Origin: a virus
Lineage: Duplodnaviria; Heunggongvirae; Uroviricota; Caudoviricetes
Length of the DNA stretch: 12,956 nucleotides
Virus record (IMG/VR): IMGVR_UViG_2531839252_000007
Strand: one strand, 5' to 3'
Shown here in pieces: positions 1 through 12,338 of the stretch (the first letter of the stretch is position 1; the number at the start of each line of letters is the position of its first letter). Under the pieces are notes generated by a model. That model had not been told where the DNA came from and searched no databases. It saw only the letters and a program-made list of their open reading frames with translations. The translations under genes and the position numbers were made by a program.

Positions 1-1260
1 ATGGCAAAGCTGACAGATATCCAAATCAAGTCATGGATTAAGGCAGGAGAGCGCTTCGAGGGGCGCTCTGACGGCAACGGGCTATACCTTCGCTATCGAG
101 CGGGGGATAAAGTGCCTGTATGGCGTTTTCGATATCAGTTCGCTGGGAAATCACGGGTAATGCTTATTGGATCTTATAGCGAAATATCCCTTTCCAAAGC
201 ACGGGAAATAGCCAAGGAATTATCCGCACGTGTAGCCCTAGGCTTCGATGTCGCCGGGGAAAAGAAAGCGCGAAAAGCGGCTGCTATAGAAAAGATGGAG
301 CGGGAGAAAAACGCGCTTCGCGTGTCAGAGCTAGCAACCGAGTATTTCGAACGGCAGATTTTGGGACGCTGGAAACATCCCGATCTTCTGCGCCGGAGAA
401 TCGATAAGGATATCAACCCACATATTGGCAACATGAAGATAGAGGACGTAAAACCCCGTCATATTGATGCGATGCTACAGAGCGTTGTTGATCGTGGCGC
501 TCCAACCGTAGCTAATGACGTTCTGCGCTGGACTAAACGCATATTCGATTATGCTATCAAGCGTCATGCACTGGAATTAAACCCAGCTGGAGCATTTGAT
601 CTGTCAGACGCTGGCGGGCAGGAAAGTAGCCGTATGCGCTGGCTGACCCGTGAAGAACTTATACGTTTTTTCCAAGCTATGCGCACTGCAAAAGGATTCA
701 GCCGCGAGAACGAGCTGACCATGAAGCTAATCCTCTGCCTGTGTTGTCGCAAAATGGAGCTGTGCGGTGCTCAGTGGGATGAATTCGACCTTGATGAAGC
801 AGTGTGGCATCTACCAGCAGAACGCGTTAAAAACGGCGACGCTATTGATATACCACTACCTCCACCTGCGGTTGGTTGGTTGAGAGAGCTTCGCACTATC
901 GCGGGCAGTGGGAGTAAATGGGTTCTCCCCGCGCGGAAGATGCAACACCGCATGATTCCCCACATTCAGGAAAGCACACTCCCCGTGGCGCTGGCAAAAG
1001 TACGCCGCGAAATGCCAGAAGTACCAAACTTCACAATTCACGATTTCAGACGTACCGCCCGCACCCATTTAGCGGCGTTGGGTGTCGATCCCGTAGTCGC
1101 AGAACGTTGCCTGAATCACCGCATTAAAGGCGTTGAGGGTATCTACAACCGCCACCAGTACTTTGAAGAACGACGGGCAGCCCTGGAACTGTGGGCGGGG
1201 CTTCTGGTTTCGCTTGAACGAGGGGAAAACTACAATGTTATTCCTTTATCTAAAATATAA
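1..1260 (+). CDS. int: Tyrosine recombinase / phage integrase, P4-like family
   Basis: 419-aa ORF. The N-terminus (MAKLTDIQIK...GNGLYLRYRAGDK..WRFRYQFAGK) is typical of P4-type integrase N-domains. C-terminal catalytic signatures HDFRRTARTH (H-x-x-R) and GIYNRHQY (catalytic Tyr region) are present. The window begins exactly at the start codon, so promoter and att site lie outside it. Confidence 0.93.
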   Translation: MAKLTDIQIKSWIKAGERFEGRSDGNGLYLRYRAGDKVPVWRFRYQFAGKSRVMLIGSYSEISLSKAREIAKELSARVALGFDVAGEKKARKAAAIEKMEREKNALRVSELATEYFERQILGRWKHPDLLRRRIDKDINPHIGNMKIEDVKPRHIDAMLQSVVDRGAPTVANDVLRWTKRIFDYAIKRHALELNPAGAFDLSDAGGQESSRMRWLTREELIRFFQAMRTAKGFSRENELTMKLILCLCCRKMELCGAQWDEFDLDEAVWHLPAERVKNGDAIDIPLPPPAVGWLRELRTIAGSGSKWVLPARKMQHRMIPHIQESTLPVALAKVRREMPEVPNFTIHDFRRTARTHLAALGVDPVVAERCLNHRIKGVEGIYNRHQYFEERRAALELWAGLLVSLERGENYNVIPLSKI

Positions 1261-1571: not shown

Positions 1572-1603
1572 AAAAAGCCCGCGCTGGAGACGCACGGGCT
1601 TTT
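1572..1603. terminator. Putative bidirectional intrinsic terminator
   Basis: GC-rich stem AGCCCG(1576-1581)/CGGGCT(1595-1600), preceded by an A-tract and followed by TTTT. The loop is rather long, so confidence is moderate. Confidence 0.45.
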
Positions 1604-1677
1604 GGGTACCGATAACCATGTTTGGAATCAACTCATTGAGTTCTGACCTCAATTTGCATGTTATCACAAGAAAAACA

Positions 1678-1726
1678 CATTGCAATAATTGCAACAACGA
1701 ATATTATCATTGCGTATAATGAAACA
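1678..1726 (+). promoter_or_regulatory. Candidate sigma70 promoter and operator for cargo operon 1
   Basis: Consensus -10 TATAAT at 1715-1720. TTGCAA hexamers at 1680-1685 and 1689-1694 sit inside the palindromic element ATTGCAAT-AATTGCAA (operator-like), but spacing to the -10 is not ideal. A 13-bp inverted repeat AACTCA-T-TGAGTT lies at 1630-1642. Confidence 0.4.
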
Positions 1727-1760: not shown

Positions 1761-2312
1761 ATGAAAGATATTACAAACATCGCAGTGACTGGCGAAGATG
1801 GCGTGGTGACGTATGCCGACGGCAGTAAAGAGGAGTTCCAGTGCAGCGGAACCGTTGCGACCATCATTGCAAGTCTTGCAACGACACTCGAGAAAGAACG
1901 CAAAATGCGCATCGCCACCGGCGACCGCCTGCGCCGCATGTACACCCGCGACAGTGATATGATTTCCCGCGGTTTGAATGGCACGTCTGCTACTTCCACG
2001 GCACCGACAGCAATGAATGCTGAGTTCATGCGTCTGGTACGTGCCGTAGCGCCGAAATACGATTCAGCACTGCCCGACGCCGACCCGCGCATCGTTGCGC
2101 TCGATGTGCTGCGCTACGCCCCTGCTGAGGCGTTCAGCGCCGTACACCCTACCCCAATGTCAGAAATCCAGCTGGATCAGGCTATCGATATACTCGAGCA
2201 GGTTGGCGACTACATGAAAGCAAACAATATCGCTCCGAAAATAATTTCTACAGGAGACGCAATCCGCAGCATCAATGCTGACAACGCCACCTTCTGGGGC
2301 AAAAAACACTAA
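1761..2312 (+). CDS. Hypothetical protein (183 aa), first gene of cargo cassette 1
   Basis: Long ORF with a GAGG Shine-Dalgarno about 9 nt upstream of the ATG. No family recognisable from sequence. The antisense ORF 1664-2092 is judged spurious. Confidence 0.75.
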   Translation: MKDITNIAVTGEDGVVTYADGSKEEFQCSGTVATIIASLATTLEKERKMRIATGDRLRRMYTRDSDMISRGLNGTSATSTAPTAMNAEFMRLVRAVAPKYDSALPDADPRIVALDVLRYAPAEAFSAVHPTPMSEIQLDQAIDILEQVGDYMKANNIAPKIISTGDAIRSINADNATFWGKKH

Positions 2313-2318
2313 AGAGAT

Positions 2319-2513
2319 ATGAGCATGCCTATCTATGACCCGAAATTAGCCGCAGGCAACCCACAGCGCGCCCACCGCCCGATGCTGACCCGTCAGGATC
2401 TTGAAGCGGCAAAGGCACGCAATAACTTCGATCGCCAGAGTCGCAACCTGCAGCAACTCAACGAATCAAATGCACGGTTCTGGAGTGAACAGAATGAGAA
2501 AGCCAAACGTTAA
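2319..2513 (+). CDS. Small hypothetical protein (64 aa)
   Basis: Begins 6 nt after the upstream stop and is basic and Q/R-rich. Its 3' end overlaps the next start by 20 nt. Confidence 0.5.
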   Translation: MSMPIYDPKLAAGNPQRAHRPMLTRQDLEAAKARNNFDRQSRNLQQLNESNARFWSEQNEKAKR

Positions 2514-2670
2514 GCCGGTCCTGCTGTCCGCCGAGCAGATGCAGGCCATACGCAACATTCAGGAACGTGAACGCCAGCGCTCCAATCTCGGCGTCGCTCC
2601 CACCGTTCACCAGATTGCCCGCGGCCTCATGGCTAAGGCTCTGGCCTCACTGGCAAGCGAGGGCGTGTAA
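2494..2670 (+). CDS. Small hypothetical protein (58 aa), possible DNA-binding or adaptor protein
   Basis: The ATG at 2494 has a GGAG Shine-Dalgarno 8 nt upstream. The track ORF 2401-2670 is trimmed to this start because the longer version would overlap the previous gene by over 100 nt. Its stop overlaps the next start (TAATG). Confidence 0.55.
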   Translation: MRKPNVKPVLLSAEQMQAIRNIQERERQRSNLGVAPTVHQIARGLMAKALASLASEGV

Positions 2671-3341
2671 TGGGCGCCATTCACCAGATATATGAGCAGG
2701 AAATGTTCTATAACTGGATAGGCGATGGTAAACGATGTGTAGCATTCCACGAAGCGGGCCATGCAGTAGCCGCATGGCTTATTCGCTTAGATATGCAGGT
2801 TATCGCCATTATGGATGAATCCGGCTACGTTGCTGGCGAACATGTACATGAAGCCCAGTGTTTGGGCGTTGTTAAACACGGCATAATCCACAACCACGAT
2901 CTCAGGCGTTTGCGGGAGAGTAAATCTGGTGTAGTTGGGCACGATGGCAAAGTTATCCCTTTCATACGCTACTACGCGGAAGGTATAAAACGCGATGCAA
3001 CAAAGGCCGCTTTTGTAGCCCTCGCTGGACCAGTAAGCGAAGCCCTTTACGAAAATAACGAAATTTTCAATAAAAAGTATTCACTCCCTCACCGCTATGA
3101 CATGGCTAACGTAAATGACATGCTCGATTTAATATGTGCCACGGATAAGCAAATTAACAGGAAGTTAATGCTTTCTAAACTTGTTGAAAAGACCAAATTC
3201 CTCATGACTCAATACTGGCCGGAAGTAGGAAAAATAGCGCATTTGCTTGAGCGGGATAACATTGTTAATGGGCGCGATGTTAGCTCGCTAATCGGCCTCA
3301 ACGTCATTGACCGGGCAACGCCATTTTTGCTGGCGGAATAA
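2670..3341 (+). CDS. Standalone zinc metalloprotease-like protein with HEXXH motif (FtsH / M41 protease-domain-like)
   Basis: AFHEAGHAVAAW motif at residues 26-37 (HEAGH at nt 2748-2762) resembles the FtsH active-site helix. Downstream LAGPVSEALYEN resembles the FtsH LAEE region. No AAA+ ATPase or transmembrane segment is present. Start is coupled to the upstream stop. Confidence 0.75.
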   Translation: MGAIHQIYEQEMFYNWIGDGKRCVAFHEAGHAVAAWLIRLDMQVIAIMDESGYVAGEHVHEAQCLGVVKHGIIHNHDLRRLRESKSGVVGHDGKVIPFIRYYAEGIKRDATKAAFVALAGPVSEALYENNEIFNKKYSLPHRYDMANVNDMLDLICATDKQINRKLMLSKLVEKTKFLMTQYWPEVGKIAHLLERDNIVNGRDVSSLIGLNVIDRATPFLLAE

Positions 3342-3417: not shown

Positions 3418-4476
3418 ATGATGAATAATTTAATCAATCGCATTGCTTTAACCTTTCTAGCGTTAGTACTCACAGGCTGCACTGCGGGGAAAATCGATCC
3501 CGCAAAAGCGTTAACACAAATGCATATCGTCAAAAGTGATGACTATAAGAAGCGCCCCGGCTGGCCTGCGTTGGTTCGTCTGGGTACTGACGATTGTGAG
3601 ACATACAAAAGTGGCGGCGGTAGCCTCTTTAAGTGGGACGGGCTGACGTGCAACGACAAAAGCATTATCCTGGCGGTTAATAGCAAACCACAGACCATTC
3701 CAGTGTTCTACGCTGCTTACCATGAATACGGGAGCTATGGGGTCGGGGAACTATCCAATTTTGACAATAGCACCCGAACAGGTGAGGAAGCCTCGAAGAT
3801 TCTGGTTAACCTGACCACAGTATTGAACAATCCGGCAAAAGTTGACGCTATCTATGCTGACTATGAAAAGGATCGTTGGAGCATGGGACTTGGTACAGTC
3901 AACGAAAGCGATTTTAAAAAGAGCCTGGCTACTTTTGCTCAGGAACGGGATAAGCTTGCCTCTGAATACCATAAATTACGTGACGCAAACCAAAAGAGAT
4001 ACCTAGCTGAACGGGACGAACGAATCAAACGTGAGAAAGAAGAGGCCATGGCCTCTGAAAAAACGATTGATCTCGTGTTATGGCAGAATCCAACAGTTGA
4101 GCAACAGATGGTTGTTGACGCTCTGCACACTATTAAATTCACAATAAGAAACGATGGCGTGGCATACGCTAACGGTCGCCGATTTATGTCAATTGCCGGG
4201 ATGGAATATCTCAGGAATAGCCTAGCTCTGAGTATGGAGTCATGTTCAGACGCTGGGGCATATGTTGGTGATACGGCATTAAATCGCGCATGTATTCAGG
4301 GCTTGGCGAGGAACATTGTTGAGTGGGGGAAAACCGCCAACGACCGTTCTATTTCAGACAGAGCATGGAACGCAGCCGCAATGGATGGCAGCATTAACTA
4401 CAACCCAATCAAGTATGAAATCCTGTTTTCACATTGGGCAGGAATGGCCCGTGTCTACTCTGCTCGTGGATATTAA
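3418..4476 (+). CDS. Lipoprotein (352 aa) with signal peptide, lipobox and charged coiled-coil-like segment
   Basis: The N-terminus MMNNLINRIALTFLALVLTGC has a hydrophobic core and an L-T-G-C lipobox. An AAGGA Shine-Dalgarno lies upstream. The middle region KLRDANQKRYLAERDERIKREKEEAMASEK is coiled-coil-like. Confidence 0.85.
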   Translation: MMNNLINRIALTFLALVLTGCTAGKIDPAKALTQMHIVKSDDYKKRPGWPALVRLGTDDCETYKSGGGSLFKWDGLTCNDKSIILAVNSKPQTIPVFYAAYHEYGSYGVGELSNFDNSTRTGEEASKILVNLTTVLNNPAKVDAIYADYEKDRWSMGLGTVNESDFKKSLATFAQERDKLASEYHKLRDANQKRYLAERDERIKREKEEAMASEKTIDLVLWQNPTVEQQMVVDALHTIKFTIRNDGVAYANGRRFMSIAGMEYLRNSLALSMESCSDAGAYVGDTALNRACIQGLARNIVEWGKTANDRSISDRAWNAAAMDGSINYNPIKYEILFSHWAGMARVYSARGY

Positions 4477-4526: not shown

Positions 4527-4552
4527 AGCCCGCATTTTAGCGGGCTTTCTTT
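4527..4552 (+). terminator. Rho-independent terminator after the lipoprotein gene
   Basis: Stem AGCCCGC(4527-4533), loop ATTTTA, stem GCGGGCT(4540-4546), followed by TTCTTT. Confidence 0.7.
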
Positions 4553-4618: not shown

Positions 4619-5731
4619 CTATTTAACTAAACGTAAATGTGACGGGCGTATCCCCGATTCCTGGGTACTCGATTTTCCACCATTGATAGCTTCCATAAAG
4701 AAGCTGTTACTGAAAGTAAGTGCACTCGCTTCGTCCGCAGGTAACCTCAACTGCTCGAGAATATCTCCCCTTTTAACGCCTTTGCTGCGTAGGGCTGAAA
4801 ACACTTTATCCAGCACTAATGACTTTTCACGTTCAGCAATCCCTTGAGGCTCACTCGTACGATATCCACGGCGAGCAAGTTCTATCGATAGCTGTCGATA
4901 ATGCCATTCGGTAGATAAACCGACATCAAACGTACGGCGCACCAAAGCCGCCAATGATACCCGCCAGTTCTTTTTTAACGAGATGAGTAGATCAAGCGAT
5001 GGCATTCTTGGCACTAAAGCTAAAATACTACGCTCAGGCATCAAAAAGGCCGATGCGAATCGATCTGCATCCTGCTCAGCTTGGCGGCCGTTGTTAGTTG
5101 AATGTTTATGGAGAACCAAGTGCCCCAGTTCATGAGCTGCATCGAATCGACTACGCTCCGGCGTTTTCATTGTATTCAAAAGCACAAAAGGTTTTTCATC
5201 CATCCAGAAAGAAAAGGCGTCTACTTCAATACAATTTTCCGCGAGAGAGAACACACGGACCCCATTAGCTTCAAGAAGATGGACCATGTTAGAGATGGAT
5301 AATTCACCTATCCCCCAACTTTCTCTAACCACGCGAGCAGCTCGCTCAGGCTCAGAATAACCATCGAAACTACAATCAGGTACATTAGGTTTAGGAAGCT
5401 TAAACTGCCCGTCAATCCAAGCTGATAGCTCTTGCGCGAGCTTTCCGGCTCCGAGTGCTGAGTCCCTTTTCTGTGCCGTCAACTTTGTCATTGCACGGAA
5501 ACTAACGGCTTCTGGCGACAGAGTAGGTACATCCCTGTCGAGGAAGAACTCAATCGGATAGCCCAGAACAGCAGAAATCCGTTCCATGGTATCGCTGGCT
5601 ATGGCATCAAAAATCCCTGCTTTCTCGTAATTCGAAATCGTCTTACTAGTCAATTCTGTAGCTTCAGCTAAAGCTCTTTGTGTCAGGCCTCTCCGTTCTC
5701 TGGCTATACGTAAACGCTCTGAATTAAACAT
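4619..5731 (-). CDS. XRE-family HTH fused to ImmA/IrrE-type (M78, COG2856-like) zinc metallopeptidase, with C-terminal extension of about 130 aa
   Basis: N-terminal HTH LTQRALAEATELTSKTISNYEKAG. HELGH at residues 200-204 (nt 5120-5134, verified by reverse-complement translation). Followed by EQDADRFASAFLMP, the characteristic ImmA/IrrE E-x-x-A-x-x-F-A-x-x-x-L-x-P signature. Starts 9 nt after the upstream gene stop. Confidence 0.9.
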   Translation of the reverse strand: MFNSERLRIARERRGLTQRALAEATELTSKTISNYEKAGIFDAIASDTMERISAVLGYPIEFFLDRDVPTLSPEAVSFRAMTKLTAQKRDSALGAGKLAQELSAWIDGQFKLPKPNVPDCSFDGYSEPERAARVVRESWGIGELSISNMVHLLEANGVRVFSLAENCIEVDAFSFWMDEKPFVLLNTMKTPERSRFDAAHELGHLVLHKHSTNNGRQAEQDADRFASAFLMPERSILALVPRMPSLDLLISLKKNWRVSLAALVRRTFDVGLSTEWHYRQLSIELARRGYRTSEPQGIAEREKSLVLDKVFSALRSKGVKRGDILEQLRLPADEASALTFSNSFFMEAINGGKSSTQESGIRPSHLRLVK

Positions 5732-5740
5732 GGTGCATAT

Positions 5741-6460
5741 TTAGCCTGTTTTTAAAATGTCGAGATCGATATCCGGTGTAAACTGCGGTACATCACCGTT
5801 CTGAACAATAGGGTCAGGTTGATGAGGAGCAATAATTAAACGTGTGGAGAAGGCATTAACTACATTCTTGTTATTGTATGAAATCGGGCGTGAAAGCTCA
5901 GCTCGGATCCCCACGCGCTCATCCCCGTCAATTTCATAAAAATCGTAAAGTAAAAACCATAAGTCCAGTCCGATTTTATTCGGTAGCAGTGGTATAACAT
6001 CACCTTCCGGCATGTCTAAATCCAGCTTAAGCTGGCTATCATCCAGGATAAGCTCACCCTGACCCGGGGTGTTATTATGGATTAACCCCATCAGCTCACA
6101 AGTAAAATCACCTTTCTTCATGCGAGACTCAGGAAATCCATGAACCAAACCTGTCTGATCACACCCCCGGCAGAGGTAAAGGGCAACTTTATCACTTACA
6201 GTCAGTTCAACATTTCGCAGGGACAGACGTTTGTAGCCTTTCGGAGCCAGAATGTCGCGGGCTGCACTCACCCCCTCACCATAGAAATATTGCCCACGTG
6301 AGGTCTTGGGGTGATTCTGAGTCGTCGAATAACGACCAGACAAGCCACGCTCAAGAATACGCCTGAGATCACTTTGGCTCAGATTCAGGGACTGCAGGTA
6401 GGATTCAACATCGTCAGGATCTGCCAAAACAATGGTTTTTGCGAGATTATGAGAGTACAT
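5741..6460 (-). CDS. Hypothetical protein (239 aa), first gene of minus-strand cargo operon
   Basis: ATG at 6458-6460 with an AAGAGG Shine-Dalgarno 8 nt upstream. No recognisable family. Co-oriented with, and 9 nt upstream of, the HTH-peptidase gene. Confidence 0.8.
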   Translation of the reverse strand: MYSHNLAKTIVLADPDDVESYLQSLNLSQSDLRRILERGLSGRYSTTQNHPKTSRGQYFYGEGVSAARDILAPKGYKRLSLRNVELTVSDKVALYLCRGCDQTGLVHGFPESRMKKGDFTCELMGLIHNNTPGQGELILDDSQLKLDLDMPEGDVIPLLPNKIGLDLWFLLYDFYEIDGDERVGIRAELSRPISYNNKNVVNAFSTRLIIAPHQPDPIVQNGDVPQFTPDIDLDILKTG

Positions 6461-6485
6461 CGGAAAAGCCTCTTATATATTTTCT

Positions 6486-6520
6486 ATTTTTTATACCTCA
6501 TTTGAGGTTTAAAAACAAGA
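6486..6520 (-). promoter_or_regulatory. Candidate promoter of the minus-strand operon with palindromic operator in the spacer
   Basis: On the minus strand: -35 TTGTTT (plus 6513-6518), 17-bp spacer, -10 TATAAA (plus 6490-6495). The spacer contains the inverted repeat ACCTCA-tt-TGAGGT (6495-6508). Confidence 0.45.
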
Positions 6521-6666
6521 AAATCACTGTATAAAATCTCAGAGATAATCGACAGATTAGAGAGTATTATCCATATTGAGGCTATCCCGACGGGGAGAAA
6601 AGCGGCTACGCCTTGCCGCCTGCCTCCCCCATTATCTCAAGGCGGTGACGTGTAAGGCGAACGTGC

Positions 6667-7485
6667 ATGAGTGGTTTTGTTTTTCCTTTCGAGTTTCAAC
6701 CAGTGCCAGAGGCATTGGCAATCCTGAACGACATGGATATTGCTCCCTTTGAAATAACCGAAAAACACCTAGAAAGCTGGTGGGCGGAGGGGAAAATTCA
6801 ACTGTGCTTTAACTGGGGTAGATTCTGGAAAGCTGGCTTAGCCGACGAACTGGCAAAAACAGAAGGCTACGCAGAATTAGGGGCGAAAGAAAAGATCACT
6901 GCGCTCAATGCTGTATCCGCTTCCCCCGAGGCTAACATCAGTCTTGTCGTGCCATCTTACAGCGATTTAAGTTTTATCTGGCGCGGGCATAGCGACGATC
7001 CACTCCCCTGTATCGAGGCCAAACCCTACGGGCTTGATCAACCTTTTGTTATCAAACGCGTTCCTCACACCTGCGAGGACTATTGCGATTACGGTACGCA
7101 GCATTGGGAAAAACTTTACCATTCGCTGCACATTTCGAGTATGGTGCTGCCGCGTGCTGAAGCTGAAAAAATTTATTATCTCTGCAACCCTACAGCTATT
7201 CCAGGCATGGACGAAAAGACGGCATCTGCAGTATCTGCGAAAACGGTTAACTATCTGGCCACTGCTTTAAAAGCTTTTATTCACATCCATTACGGGGCTG
7301 ATGTGGCGGACAACCTGCGCAAACATCTTGAGGATCCCACCAGTGATATACGGAAAGACTTTGCGAATAAAGGGATCAAAGCGCCAGGTGGAAAAGCGCT
7401 GGCCAGCCATCTGAAAAATATTCTGATTGAAGTTTTACCCGCGCTCGACAACGTCGATGTGGAGAGTGACGCTGGTAATACATAA
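6667..7485 (+). CDS. Hypothetical protein (272 aa), divergent from the minus-strand operon
   Basis: Coding-like ORF with AAGG about 9 nt upstream of the ATG. Contains a Cys/His-rich patch HTCEDYCDYGTQHWEKLYHSLH. No recognisable family. Confidence 0.7.
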   Translation: MSGFVFPFEFQPVPEALAILNDMDIAPFEITEKHLESWWAEGKIQLCFNWGRFWKAGLADELAKTEGYAELGAKEKITALNAVSASPEANISLVVPSYSDLSFIWRGHSDDPLPCIEAKPYGLDQPFVIKRVPHTCEDYCDYGTQHWEKLYHSLHISSMVLPRAEAEKIYYLCNPTAIPGMDEKTASAVSAKTVNYLATALKAFIHIHYGADVADNLRKHLEDPTSDIRKDFANKGIKAPGGKALASHLKNILIEVLPALDNVDVESDAGNT

Positions 7486-7547
7486 CCCCGGAACATTCCA
7501 TATATTCCGACGCATTAGAATATTCCAGAGCCCATCACCATAACCTT

Positions 7548-7581
7548 GCGATTACCTTCTCACTCAATAGCAGGTAATCGC
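7548..7581 (+). promoter_or_regulatory. Inverted repeat GCGATTACC/GGTAATCGC overlapping the alpA ribosome-binding site
   Basis: 9-bp arms at 7548-7556 and 7573-7581 with a 16-nt spacer. The right arm ends at the base before the alpA ATG. Three TATTCC-like repeats lie upstream at 7494-7526. Confidence 0.4.
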
Positions 7582-7794
7582 ATGAAATCGCAAACTTTCA
7601 CCTTTCCCACCAATGGCAACGCACGAGCCAAACAAGTGGCGCACTATCTTGGAGTGCATATCAGCACCGTATGGCGCTATGCAAAACGTCCTGATTTTCC
7701 AAAACCCCACCAGTTAACCGACGGCGTGACCGTCTTTGACGCCGCAGCTATTCGCCAATGGAACAAGCAAAAAACCGGGGGTGAGAATGCTTAA
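7582..7794 (+). CDS. alpA: AlpA-family (P4 Vis / CP4-57 AlpA-like) small HTH regulator or excisionase
   Basis: 70-aa product MKSQTFTF...VAHYLGVHISTVWRYAKRPDFPKPHQLTDGVTVFDAAAIRQWNKQ matches the AlpA/Xis-type pattern (LGVs.sTvWR...FP.P...W...I..W). An in-frame start also exists at 7546. Confidence 0.85.
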   Translation: MKSQTFTFPTNGNARAKQVAHYLGVHISTVWRYAKRPDFPKPHQLTDGVTVFDAAAIRQWNKQKTGGENA

Positions 7795-7848
7795 CGCGAC
7801 CGTGAGCACACCCTGCACGACAGCCGTTCGATCTCCATTGTTGGCGGG

Positions 7849-8043
7849 TCAGGCTTTCGGCTCAATACCCAGCCGCTGGAGTTCTTTGCGCCCCAAGGTT
7901 TTCATCCAATTAGCTAAACTCATACCTGCATCTCGTGCGGCGGCCTCGAATTGCTCTTTCAATTCTGGGGCGATCCTCACTTGGAAAGCTGGTGCCTTTC
8001 CCCTGCCTTTGGGCTGTTTATCACGCTGTATTACTGTTGACAT
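7849..8043 (-). CDS. Ribbon-helix-helix (CopG/Arc-like) small DNA-binding protein, likely repressor
   Basis: 64-aa product from M18 of the track ORF; the upstream AGG gives a better ribosome-binding site than the 8094 start. FQVRIAPELKEQFEAAARDAGMSLANWMKTLGRKEL fits a strand-helix-helix pattern. Divergent from the replication operon. Confidence 0.6.
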   Translation of the reverse strand: MSTVIQRDKQPKGRGKAPAFQVRIAPELKEQFEAAARDAGMSLANWMKTLGRKELQRLGIEPKA

Positions 8044-9047: not shown

Positions 9048-9268
9048 TGCCACGCAAACATCGCTCATCAAGCAACCTGATCAAATTAATGGAACGCCAG
9101 AAAGGTATAGGGCGCGACGATATCCAGATCGCAGATAATCGCCCTACATTCATGCCGTACGAGCCGAACGGAACCTACGCCACAAACCGCCATACCCGCC
9201 GTATGCTACGCAAGCTCCACGGCATCCAGGCAAAAAGAATGTGTGATCTGAAAGGAGGTCAGAAATGA
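9047..9268 (+). CDS. Small basic hypothetical protein (73 aa)
   Basis: AGGGAGG Shine-Dalgarno upstream. TAATG start/stop overlap with the upstream gene and ATGA overlap with the primase gene. Confidence 0.65.
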   Translation: MPRKHRSSSNLIKLMERQKGIGRDDIQIADNRPTFMPYEPNGTYATNRHTRRMLRKLHGIQAKRMCDLKGGQK

Positions 9269-11679
9269 TTGGATTCGATCACCTGATGGAGCAGGGGCAG
9301 AAACGCACCCCTGCTCGTTTTACTGCAAATAGCTTTTCTGACCTGTGCAACGCTATTCTATCGCATCGTGTGCAAATTTCCATCACCCCAGAAATGACAG
9401 ATGAAGAGCGACGTAAGGAAAAGCAGAAACTGTACTGGTTCTCGGCAACTACCCAGCAGGACGGGCAGCGACGTAAACCCGAAAACATGGCACCGTGTGC
9501 TTTCGGTATGCTGGACATTGACGGCAGCACTCCCGGTGCAATCACAGCACTTGTACAGGTGTTCCGGCGATACTCAATGCTGGTGTACCAGACGGCCAGC
9601 TATACGGCGGATGAACCTCGTCTGCGTATTGTGTGCGAGCTTTCCCGAGCGGTTGAATCTGACTACCGCCGAGCGACAGGCGAATCCATAGAAACTTTGT
9701 TGATGCAGGAGGCTGGATTCTCATTCGCCAGCCTGGCGGATAAGAAAGCACGCTGGGAGAACGGCAGCGATTATGTTGTCTTTGACCGCAATGTATACGG
9801 CGCTCAAAGCTATTGCTACTGTCCACACTCTGGAGCGAAAGCCCAGAATTACGCGGGCGCGGTAATCGACGTAGGGGCGTTACCGGAACCCGCCCAGCTA
9901 CCAGCGAAGGCGGCCAAAAGCAAGGCAAAGAAACAGCGCCAGCGTGACGCCGCGGCGGTAATAGATGCTGATTTTGACGATCTGAGCGCCGGACCGGATA
10001 ACTTCCTTATCGCCGACCTGCGCAGCGCACTCTGGTTTCCCTCCATGCTGCAAAAGGCATGGGACAATGGGGCGTGGATTGAGCAGGGCTACCGCCTTGC
10101 ATCTCTCAAAGGCACCGATTTTGAGGACGACGCGCGGCAGCTGTGGGTCGAGTGGTCATTGACCGCGGCGGATGGCTGGCCTGATGAAGAACTTGATGAA
10201 GTCGCAGCACAACGCTGGGATGGTCTCGCCCCTGACAAAACCAGCTATAAAGCTATTTTTACTGATGCTCAGGCGCAGGGGTGGAATAATCCGAGCACAT
10301 GGCGAGCAAAGGCCGCGTACATTGAGAAAATGGCCCCCAGCACACGCGGTGAACTGCTAGCGCAATATTACGGCAACGTATGCCTGAAAGCTGATGGCAA
10401 CATGGTTTATCACTATACCGGGCAGGGGTGGGAGCACATCGCCGATGCCGAGTTGCGCCGCCAGCTTTCGCATATTTTCAAAGATAACGGGGTCCCCTTT
10501 ACACCGTACGAGGTTAAAAGCGCGATTGAGGCTATGGGAATGCTTCTGCCTTTAATGGGAGAAACTCCTCGTAACCTGATTGGCTTTGCCAACGGCGTTT
10601 ATGATCTCGAGGCGCAGCGATTCCGCCCCCACTGCCCAGACGATTGGCTGACCAGCCATAACGGCGTTGAATACACGCAACCGGTTAAAGGCGAAACCCT
10701 GAAAAACAATGCCCCAAACTTCTGGCGCTGGCTGCATCATTCCGCAGGGGGCGACTTCGACAAAATGGAGAGAATCAAAGCCGCTCTGTATATGGTGCTG
10801 GCAAACCGCTACGACTGGCAACTGTTCATCGAGGTTACCGGTGCTGGTGGCAGTGGTAAAAGCGTGTTCACGGGTATTGCACGTATGCTGACGGGCGAAC
10901 TACACGCCACCAGCGGCACAATGGAGGACATGGACACCGCGCGCGAACGCGCATCTTTTGTCGGCAAAAGCCTGATCACCCTACCCGACCAAGCAACATA
11001 TACGGGTTCCGGGCCGGGTATCAAGGCTATAACGGGCGGCGACGTGGTAAGGATCGACCCAAAGCACGAAAAGCCATTCCATACGGTTATTCGCGCCGTT
11101 GTCATCGCAACAAACAACGAACCTATGCGTTTCACCGAACGACAAGGCGGGATATCGCGGCGCCGGGTTATTTTCCCGTTTAACCATGAAGTGCCGGAGG
11201 CGGAACGTGATCCCCATCTGCTCGATAAAATTAAAGCCGAACTGCCGGTAATCGTCCGTGGTCTGCTGATTGACTTCGAACAGCCAGGCAAAGCCAAATC
11301 GCTACTTATCGCGCAGCGTGATTCAGCGGAAGCGCTGCAGGTGAAGAACGATAACGACCCGATGTATGGCTTTTGCTCTTACCTGCTAGGTTTGCCGAAT
11401 CCCGAGGGCATGTACATGGGCGATGGGCGCATGGCGCGAGAGCCACGCATCTACCTCTATCATGCTTATCTGGCCTATCTGGAAGCCTACGGTTATCAGA
11501 GAACCCCCACCCTGCCAAAGTTCAGCGGAGATTTACGGGACACGCTCAAAGCCTTTGGTATTACTCTGGACAGTAAAAAGAGTAAAAAGGGCAAAAGATA
11601 TAACGTCAATTTGTCTGACAGGGCACAAGAATGGCTGGGAGAAGACGAACTCTCAGCTGTGCCCGACACATTGCAGTAA
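9265..11679 (+). CDS. Replication primase/helicase (N-terminal AEP/prim-pol-like domain, P4-family/D5-like SF3 helicase domain)
   Basis: 804 aa with an AAAGGAGG Shine-Dalgarno. Walker A VTGAGGSGKS at residues 526-533 (nt 10840-10863) sits in the middle, as in P4 alpha and D5-type helicases. N-terminal MLDIDG (nt 9508-9525) is an acidic D-x-D motif consistent with an AEP-type primase. Confidence 0.85.
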   Translation: MIGFDHLMEQGQKRTPARFTANSFSDLCNAILSHRVQISITPEMTDEERRKEKQKLYWFSATTQQDGQRRKPENMAPCAFGMLDIDGSTPGAITALVQVFRRYSMLVYQTASYTADEPRLRIVCELSRAVESDYRRATGESIETLLMQEAGFSFASLADKKARWENGSDYVVFDRNVYGAQSYCYCPHSGAKAQNYAGAVIDVGALPEPAQLPAKAAKSKAKKQRQRDAAAVIDADFDDLSAGPDNFLIADLRSALWFPSMLQKAWDNGAWIEQGYRLASLKGTDFEDDARQLWVEWSLTAADGWPDEELDEVAAQRWDGLAPDKTSYKAIFTDAQAQGWNNPSTWRAKAAYIEKMAPSTRGELLAQYYGNVCLKADGNMVYHYTGQGWEHIADAELRRQLSHIFKDNGVPFTPYEVKSAIEAMGMLLPLMGETPRNLIGFANGVYDLEAQRFRPHCPDDWLTSHNGVEYTQPVKGETLKNNAPNFWRWLHHSAGGDFDKMERIKAALYMVLANRYDWQLFIEVTGAGGSGKSVFTGIARMLTGELHATSGTMEDMDTARERASFVGKSLITLPDQATYTGSGPGIKAITGGDVVRIDPKHEKPFHTVIRAVVIATNNEPMRFTERQGGISRRRVIFPFNHEVPEAERDPHLLDKIKAELPVIVRGLLIDFEQPGKAKSLLIAQRDSAEALQVKNDNDPMYGFCSYLLGLPNPEGMYMGDGRMAREPRIYLYHAYLAYLEAYGYQRTPTLPKFSGDLRDTLKAFGITLDSKKSKKGKRYNVNLSDRAQEWLGEDELSAVPDTLQ

Positions 11680-11852: not shown

Positions 11853-12338
11853 TATAGCGCGAAATATTTTAATATTTGCAGTTGAATTGCAATCCTTGAA
11901 AACAGAAACGCGTAGCAAAACGTAGAGTGCTGAAAAAATTTTGTTGGGGAGCAGTTCAAACTGCATGAGCAATTTTCAAGCACTCCTCTTTGTCTTGTAC
12001 CCAAGACTGTACCCAATAGAAAAAATAGAAAATAAAAACTCAGCAATAGCAGCGATTGGTGCCACTACTCAACATTCAGATTCATAAGCGACATATCTCC
12101 GTAGGCCGTTGTTAATTACAGCGGCGCTACGCATATAGTTTCGTCCTCATATTTATTTACTCCATACTTTTTCTAATGCATTTTACTTATCACAAAATCA
12201 GAAAAATGCATTCTTACTACAGAAAATAGCAATTTCACATAACTACAAATTATCAATCTATTCTCTCCTTAAAAAATCTCAATCGTGACAATGCGCACAA
12301 ATCGCTACCCTTCCAGACAGATTTTTAGGGAGAGAACC

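Follow-up and report, generated by a model that had tools for sequence, protein, structure and literature searches.

What can the protease domain of an FtsH-type enzyme cut when neither its motor nor its anchor is present? Proteases of family M41 are textbook ATP-dependent machines, in which the catalytic sites lie inside a chamber fed by an AAA+ ring. The question is raised by the caudoviricete record IMGVR_UViG_2531839252_000007, whose full stretch of 12,956 nucleotides (nt), hereafter the window, was analyzed. A preliminary description made from the letters of this DNA alone had pointed to a tightly packed cassette of four genes (here g1 to g4), the last of which, of 223 amino acids, resembled a protease domain of FtsH standing on its own.

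Both segments on which that resemblance had been based are present in g4, namely AFHEAGHAVAAW at residues 25–36 and LAGPVSEALYEN at residues 118–129, and the stretch LAGPVSE within the latter matches the GGRxAEE helix of FtsH. As a single sequence, g4 scored 21.1 bits against Pfam PF01434 (Peptidase_M41), below the gathering cut-off of 29.9 and over residues 21–44 only, and a search of PDB returned one weak match, to AFG3L2 (E=0.0017). A profile built from 77 stand-alone relatives, 70 of which match PF01434 (E<=0.01), covered the whole protease domain of Thermus FtsH (2dhr; E=3.3e-20). Only four columns of that alignment are invariant (H27, E28, H31 and D144), and the same four, joined by G120, are invariant in a second alignment of 74 sequences. 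The zinc site of g4 comprises the HEXXH motif H27-E28-A-G-H31 together with D144, so that the third zinc ligand, for which a check had been proposed, is conserved. In the profile alignment the conserved Asp of the stand-alone family falls on the Asp of ‘GAENDFRQAT’ in 2dhr; the third ligand of E. coli FtsH is Asp495, in the helix that follows the GGRxAEE-like helix. A different residue, D109, had been indicated by a first pairwise alignment with AFG3L2 and was rejected, since two close homologues have N at this place and D144 never varies.

The predicted fold agrees with this assignment. AlphaFold2 supplied with close homologues only gave a model of g4 with a predicted local distance difference test score (pLDDT) of 46, which was unusable; the 74-sequence alignment was used instead and yielded a pLDDT of 88.3. 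When this model was compared with PDB by Foldseek, the top 50 matches were all FtsH, AFG3L2, YME1 or FtsHi, at 11–18% sequence identity in the fold alignments, and the preliminary description, which had named a non-protease fold as the outcome that would overturn it, is upheld on this point. Unlike FtsH, AFG3L2 and YME1 (MEROPS M41, PF01434), g4 has no AAA+ ATPase, transmembrane or periplasmic part. Profile searches found no AAA domain in g1–g4, hydrophobic segments are absent from g4 (its highest 19-residue mean on the Kyte-Doolittle scale is 1.29), and the NCBIfam FtsH model gives it 15.6 bits against a cut-off of 600. The enterobacterial proteins further differ in that about 45 extra residues, rich in beta structure, follow the HEXXH helix (about residues 45–105); this insertion is conserved in their clade and missing from most relatives. 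Profile, modeled fold and catalytic residues taken together establish g4 as a member of the M41 protease-domain family and, because it has neither AAA+ module nor anchor, not as FtsH proper. We infer that it is a soluble zinc endopeptidase with the catalytic centre of FtsH.

The impression that a free-standing M41 domain would be without precedent has to be given up. A HMMER search of 1.84 billion cluster representatives (clusters at 50% identity) returned 252 proteins at E<=1e-3, nearly all of 150–240 amino acids and consisting of the domain alone. RefSeq has a name for them (‘peptidase M41 family protein’), the deposited structure 5IQJ from Vibrio cholerae, its function unassigned, is a stand-alone relative with the fold of g4, and a 214-amino-acid ‘Peptidase M41 domain-containing protein’ is encoded by an uncultured caudovirus. 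Most of these other proteins lack the insertion of g4, are 18–30% identical to it and occur in heterogeneous contexts. Since RefSeq already names the domain-only form, it is not a new category; what is new, judged from gene content across relatives, is the consistent carriage by satellites in Enterobacterales and the recurrent arrangement of g1 ahead of g4. The remark that no characterized system of this kind was known has held, with no PADLOC model matching g1–g4 and nothing relevant in literature searches on the proteins and their RefSeq accessions, on satellite or defence proteins of the M41 or FtsH-like kind, or on 5IQJ; those searches turned up no functional study of any stand-alone M41 protein.

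In the window, g4 lies in a row of co-oriented genes (Table 1). The open reading frames (ORFs) bear out the described sizes of 183, 64, 58 and 223 amino acids (62 for g2 from its RefSeq start), as they do the junctions, with 6 nt between g1 and g2, 20 nt shared by g2 and g3, and TAATG where g3 meets g4, and a Shine-Dalgarno-like motif precedes each of the four starts. The transcription unit probably does not end at g4, as had been claimed, since a fifth gene (g5) follows with no terminator-like site in between. Compared with homologues from other elements, g1–g5 are under purifying selection, with ratios of nonsynonymous to synonymous substitution rates of 0.08–0.25 (0.078 for g1, 0.23 for g2 and 0.11–0.12 for g3); the tiny ORFs g2 and g3 are therefore genuine genes.

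Table 1. Positions of the cassette, its signals and its neighbours in the window.
Feature	Position	Strand	Remarks
Tyrosine integrase	1-1260		Start of window
GC-rich hairpin with A-run and T-run flanks, bidirectional terminator-like	1573-1603	.	Terminator scan; 12 pairs, 7 of them G-C; upstream module boundary
Second short hairpin, ATTGAG...CTCAAT	1635-1653	.	Between terminator and promoter region; read from sequence
Promoter-like region	1661-1720	+	Repeated TTGCAA/TTGCGT motifs; perfect TATAAT at 1715-1720
Cassette g1-g4	1761-3341	+	Between integrase and int-alpA RNA
g1, 183 amino acids, acidic	1761-2312	+	ORF
g2, 64 amino acids	2319-2513	+	ORF; RefSeq start ATG 2325, giving 62 amino acids
g3, 58 amino acids	2494-2670	+	ORF; 20-nt overlap with g2, 1-nt overlap with g4
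g4, 223 amino acids, stand-alone M41 (FtsH-type) zinc metalloprotease domain	2670-3341	+	
g5, 352-amino-acid predicted lipoprotein	3418-4476	+	Signal peptide and lipobox LTGC
Terminator-like hairpin followed by T-run	4527-4546	+	After g5; terminator scan
RmrA (helix-turn-helix and Peptidase_M78)	4619-5731	-	PADLOC E=1e-149
RmrT	5741-6460	-	PADLOC E=1e-52
int-alpA RNA motif, Rfam RF02996	6575-6642	+	46.5 bits; gathering score 35.8
P4-family primase	9265-11679		Domains D5_N, Pox_D5, DUF5906
yicC 3'-end duplicate	12074-12200		97-100% identity to yicC across hundreds of genomes
Host gene yicG	from 12285		Right end of window

Among 5,426 complete E. coli genomes, g4-like DNA occurs in 54, g1–g4 in 21 and all five genes in 13. 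The expectation that the four genes would recur together was met in several lineages, but they are not an obligate set. The full order g1–g2–g3–g4–g5 is found in the island of the window, at yicC, and in a tRNA-Gly island (EC02), where it follows primase, ProQ and PerC genes. In E2348/69 and others g1–g4 occur without g5, and g1–g2–g3–g4 are found in L034 (L numbers denote the loci of relatives). In L008–L014 and L036–L038, g1–g2–g3 are followed by a 43-amino-acid remnant of a tail-completion gene, or a complete one, and then by a divergent g4 (42–44% identity). Reduced arrangements consist of g1, a g2-like gene of 55 amino acids and g4 (L015/16 and, on a weak g2 match, probably L035), of g1 and then g4 (Klebsiella, L031), of g3–g4 only, followed by PerC (about 30 E. 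coli genomes, L006/7), of g4–g5 only, with the first residues of g3 apparently fused to g4 (Dickeya, L003/4), or of a solitary g1 that follows the primase (L030, L032 and L033, Klebsiella elements that are very common). Presence is patchy even between sister satellites, with g4 in L031 and none in L030, L032 and L033, and the genes have evolved as a mosaic: in L009, g1–g3 are 61–75% identical and g4 only 42%, and in EC02 the figures are 99–100% for g1–g3 and 90% for g4. By this distribution g4 is an independent, optional unit that most often stands downstream of g1; g1 is likewise a separate satellite gene, widespread and usually heading this operon just after the primase; and g2 and g3 are small basic proteins of predicted accessory role, dispensable for the keeping of g4.

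Such sub-combinations (g1 alone, g3–g4, g1–g2–g4, g4–g5), together with the ordinary chromosomal contexts of distant g4 relatives, are what one would see if g1–g5 were independent satellite genes that happen to share an operon, g4 being a peptidase of housekeeping type with no part in phage biology. We judge this unlikely, as most architectures have g1 ahead of g4, down to a g4 identity of 42%, and as every enterobacterial locus examined sits on a satellite-type element bearing an integrase or a primase. The same variety bears on a toxin-antitoxin or abortive-infection module, in which g4 would be a toxic protease restrained by one or more of the small upstream proteins and freed on infection. 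A small basic gene overlapping the start of a larger enzyme through TAATG is the classic type II layout, the module lies beside the Rosmer defence genes in the window, and its distribution is patchy and mobile. An antitoxin-dependent toxin should not outlive the loss of its antitoxin, however. Intact g4 is retained in Dickeya (L003/4), where g3 is deleted, in L015/16 and L035, which have no g3, and in L006/7, which have no g2, and this contradicts the explanation; with no PADLOC match besides, it appears very improbable.

The reading that we favour, tentatively and at less than an even chance, is that g4 serves as an ATP-independent endopeptidase in the conflict between satellites and phages. 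A domain without an AAA+ module cannot unfold its substrates, which argues for limited, specific proteolysis, as by ImmA/IrrE or Lit, rather than for bulk degradation; g4 would make an ATP-free cut in one particular protein, at a segment that is exposed or disordered. From the genomic setting, that substrate may be a protein of a helper or competing phage, or a host factor that the phage needs, and its cleavage would tip the conflict toward the satellite. Signs of the conflict type are the patchy presence, the mosaic evolution, the neighbourhood of RmrT/RmrA in the window and the co-orientation with late or defence genes, in addition to the satellite setting of the enterobacterial clade.

Several observations weigh against a role in conflict. 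No model of PADLOC-DB v2 matches g1–g5 (E<=0.1), no target, partner or phenotype is on record for g4, and tblastn against 50,697 records of phages and 72,556 of plasmids found no g4 homologue. Intact catalytic residues are no proof of activity, and the conserved hexamer-forming fold would also permit a non-catalytic role. A position in the late zone of the satellites, described below, is equally compatible with a part in the satellite's own life cycle. Distant stand-alone M41 proteins occur in varied and often non-mobile contexts, among Rhizobium metabolic genes or beside a full FtsH, so that a link with phage conflict is not a trait of the stand-alone M41 family in general. The profile search of genome contigs was swamped by true FtsH and gave four distant loci, of which at least two are FtsH itself; the profile scan of viral contigs, in which confirmation used the first sequence of the alignment, confirmed five close relatives only.

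Precedents for a protease with one specific cleavage are to be found on other mobile elements. Lit, a zinc metalloprotease that the defective prophage e14 encodes, brings about abortive infection by a single specific cleavage of EF-Tu. Lit thus offers a precedent for a protease with a conflict function, although its family is unrelated to that of g4, to which the PADLOC Lit model gives no match. The ImmA/IrrE proteins (M78), which mobile elements and defence systems carry, are likewise zinc proteases with a HEXXH motif; small and working without ATP, they make one specific cleavage, and it is this model that we propose for g4. The two differ in family and fold: an M78 match is absent for g4 and present (E=9e-21) for RmrA, which is encoded 1.3 kb downstream of the cassette in the window. 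No cognate helix-turn-helix (HTH) repressor was identified beside g4, and g1–g3 match no HTH or ribbon-helix-helix family, so the analogy is functional only.

The ImmA/IrrE model can also be taken more literally, with g4 as a regulatory protease of the satellite itself. Its substrate would be a regulator or repressor, whether g3, g1 or the repressor of a helper, and the cut would switch on the satellite or its late operon. This would accord with the translational coupling of g3 and g4, which stand as a pair by themselves in L006/L007, with the high isoelectric points of g2 (10.5) and g3 (11.4), small DNA-binding proteins often being very basic, and with the repeated TTGCAA-like motifs of the promoter region. 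In ICEBs1 the gene order is immR-immA-int. An echo of it is seen in two distant lineages, L019 (5684–7482) and L024/L025 (about 5600–7900), where a small ORF, a stand-alone M41 gene and a tyrosine recombinase gene overlap or abut; the small upstream ORFs of these distant relatives are, however, not HTH proteins. Nor did g3 match ribbon-helix-helix or any DNA-binding family, the name ‘XRE’ attached to g1 has no support from hidden Markov models (HMMs), and g4 is kept without g3 (L015/16, L035, Dickeya) and without g1–g2 (L006/7, Dickeya). We consider such a switch distinctly unlikely.

A third use of the domain would turn on FtsH of the host. The FtsH substrates that matter to temperate helpers include CII, CIII and Xis of phage lambda, CIII being also an FtsH inhibitor. 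As a mimic or modulator, g4 would co-assemble or compete with the protease ring of host FtsH and shift the stability of such substrates, and g2 or g3, which are small, basic and helical, might act in the manner of CIII. In a gammaproteobacterial metagenome-assembled genome (L026, 9965–12659), a stand-alone M41 protein of 226 amino acids is encoded 26 nt upstream of a full-length FtsH (FtsH_ext, AAA and M41 domains), and this lends the idea some credit, but it is the single locus with such adjacency. The strict invariance of H27, E28, H31 and D144 in about 75 diverse relatives points to catalysis and not mere binding, and the clade-specific insertion of about 45 residues may not fit into the FtsH ring; a mimic therefore seems a rather remote prospect, as doubtful as the regulatory switch.

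Returning to the conflict reading, its genomic setting can be described more closely. Gram-negative phage-inducible chromosomal islands (PICIs) and helper-embedded satellites are divided into integration, Bro, replication and late zones (Tommasini, Mageeney and Williams, bioRxiv 10.1101/2022.07.18.500453); when its text was searched by terms, neither an M41 protease nor a peptidase came up. The carriers of the cassette share the order integrase, AlpA, (Bro/Icd), primase, late zone. Cassette genes follow the primase, in the late zone, in EC02, L008–L016, L031 and L034, as do g3–g4 only in L006/7; L034 enters this list as the one IMG/VR locus checked upstream, and the list leaves aside the region upstream of g1 in L035–L038. 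The relatives thus carry the cassette after the replication zone and among captured helper late genes, several of the carriers themselves lying inside prophage structural operons, whereas the cassette of the window stands between the integrase and the int-alpA RNA. The preliminary description had placed it in the integrase-proximal cargo slot of a P4-like element, which needs correction on two points: the element is not P4 proper, and in most relatives the cassette is carried in the late zone instead.

Satellites with g1, with or without g4 (L008–L014, L031 and L032, from E. coli and Klebsiella), were observed inside prophage structural operons, which recalls the helper-embedded satellites of Tommasini et al. 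Some are inserted at the gene of the major capsid protein, others between the cement gene and one like Pa193_gp24. The prophages that host them carry Pfam families of the E217/Pa193 type instead of lambda-type late genes, and the helpers of these satellites appear to be non-lambdoid prophages of myovirus type. In L036–L038 (5307–5900), a captured phage tail-completion/Neck1 gene (phrog_222, E=1e-47) lies between g3 and g4 and begins at the stop codon of g3; in elements of the L009 type (L009, 9907–10038) it has decayed to the 43-residue remnant. In Dickeya dadantii (L003, 10001–10060), the g4 homologue is annotated with an N-terminus, MDTGCKVKPVFLGSHQ..., that is similar to the first residues of g3, MRKPNVKPVLLSAEQ..., which suggests a deletion that fused the start of g3 onto g4. 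A 327-amino-acid protein encoded upstream in Dickeya was considered as a possible fusion of g1–g3 and set aside, being unrelated by eye, with tblastn searches with g1–g3 empty at that locus.

Judged by its markers, the element in the window is an island of PICI/helper-embedded-satellite type (integrase, int-alpA RNA, AlpA, Icd-like gene and P4-family primase). The markers of P4-type satellites, a P4-family primase, AlpA and an integrase, are all present, as is an Icd-like gene according to the RefSeq annotation; no sid, delta or psu gene is annotated in the identical RefSeq element, no dedicated HMM search having been made. The duplication of the yicC 3' end places attR at 12074–12200, and by this mark the island, of about 12 kb and found in E. 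coli, uses the 3' end of yicC, and no tRNA gene, as its integration site. On the 3' side of the int-alpA RNA come an uncharacterized ORF of 272 amino acids, AlpA, the Icd-like gene and several small ORFs. Between the int-alpA RNA and the integrase, its usual neighbour, stand g1–g5 and Rosmer, a cargo of about 5.3 kb. The Rosmer pair (RmrA/RmrT, 4619–6460, minus strand) is complete and convergent with the cassette, the terminator region between the two operons being common to both. In this arrangement the cassette of the window looks like a cargo block that was relocated, together with its upstream hairpin, to a place beside Rosmer.

That hairpin, at 1573–1603 in the window, is kept upstream of g1 in an alignment of five satellite lineages, although their flanking sequences have diverged; in the four lineages other than the window (L002, L009, L015 and L030) it comes after the primase gene. 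A match of the region 1571–1706 to the Rfam Leu_leader model (23 bits, cut-off 50) was dismissed as an artefact of the terminator hairpin. The columns of the alignment that correspond to the second hairpin (1635–1653) hold other inverted repeats, GGTG..CACC in L009 and GAGGG..CCCTC in L015/L030, as read by eye; a kept position with changed sequence hints at a structured regulatory element. As for the promoter that had been placed ahead of g1, the TATAAT at 1715–1720 is there, but the best –35 hexamer (TTGCAA, 1689–1694) lies 20 nt away and the site was not called by the consensus scan, which listed promoter-like sites at 1661–1689 and 1680–1707 (9/12 matches each). Such sites are not above chance in this region, where 4 were found and 5.7 were expected from shuffles. 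The terminator scan found no terminator-like site between g4 and g5 and placed terminator-like hairpins before g1 and after g5, which makes it likelier that the transcription unit is formed by g1–g5, and it probably comprises all five genes.

The partners of g4 are less readily classified. Even with a profile of 24 sequences, g1 has no relative in Pfam, NCBIfam, PHROG or PDB. The NCBI name ‘XRE family transcriptional regulator’ was set aside for want of a match in Pfam, NCBIfam or PDB that would back it, and so was a likeness of g1 to Rpp, with no PDB sequence match for g1 and a term search of the Rpp paper that added nothing. No family was matched by g2 or g3; a by-eye reading of g3 as a ribbon-helix-helix protein gained no support from hhalign, which gave a probability of 1.2% against an alignment of eight such proteins. 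At the C-termini of g1 (INADNATFWGKKH, 2267–2312) and g2 (LNESNARFWSEQNEKAKR, 2457–2513) a common motif, N..NAxFW, was observed, which is kept in homologues, if more loosely in those at the greatest distance; the two proteins might share a peptide for docking or recognition here. Homologues of g2 occur in L008–L014 and L034–L038, the match in L035 being weak and at the same position, with the diverged version of 55 residues in L015. The lipoprotein gene g5 adjoins g4 in EC02 and Dickeya and is found elsewhere in the same element in L008–L015, L031 and L035.

Taken together, these results describe a widespread family in which the catalytic centre is intact and the motor and anchor are lost, and so turn the opening question into a general one, namely what such a domain can cut alone. 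Should the conflict reading be wrong, the corrected gene set, the modularity of the cassette and the secure annotation of g4 would be useful all the same. That the Enterobacterales proteins are carried by satellites, near known defence systems and captured late genes, suggests an unstudied, protease-based move in the conflict between phages and satellites, and if so, the H27A/E28Q mutants would give a handle for finding the target. A broader proposition is that M41 domains without AAA form a new class of ATP-independent effectors in phage-satellite-host conflict, acting either as specific proteases that cut a protein of a helper or competitor phage, or as FtsH mimics that dock on host FtsH or replace its protease ring and rewire the stability of lysis-lysogeny regulators, with g2/g3 as CIII-like modulators; in this general form we think it improbable. 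If true, the conflict reading would add a new enzymatic type to the mechanisms by which satellites interfere and defend, and in either version, protease or FtsH mimic, a first function would be given to a family of at least 252 clusters at 50% identity.

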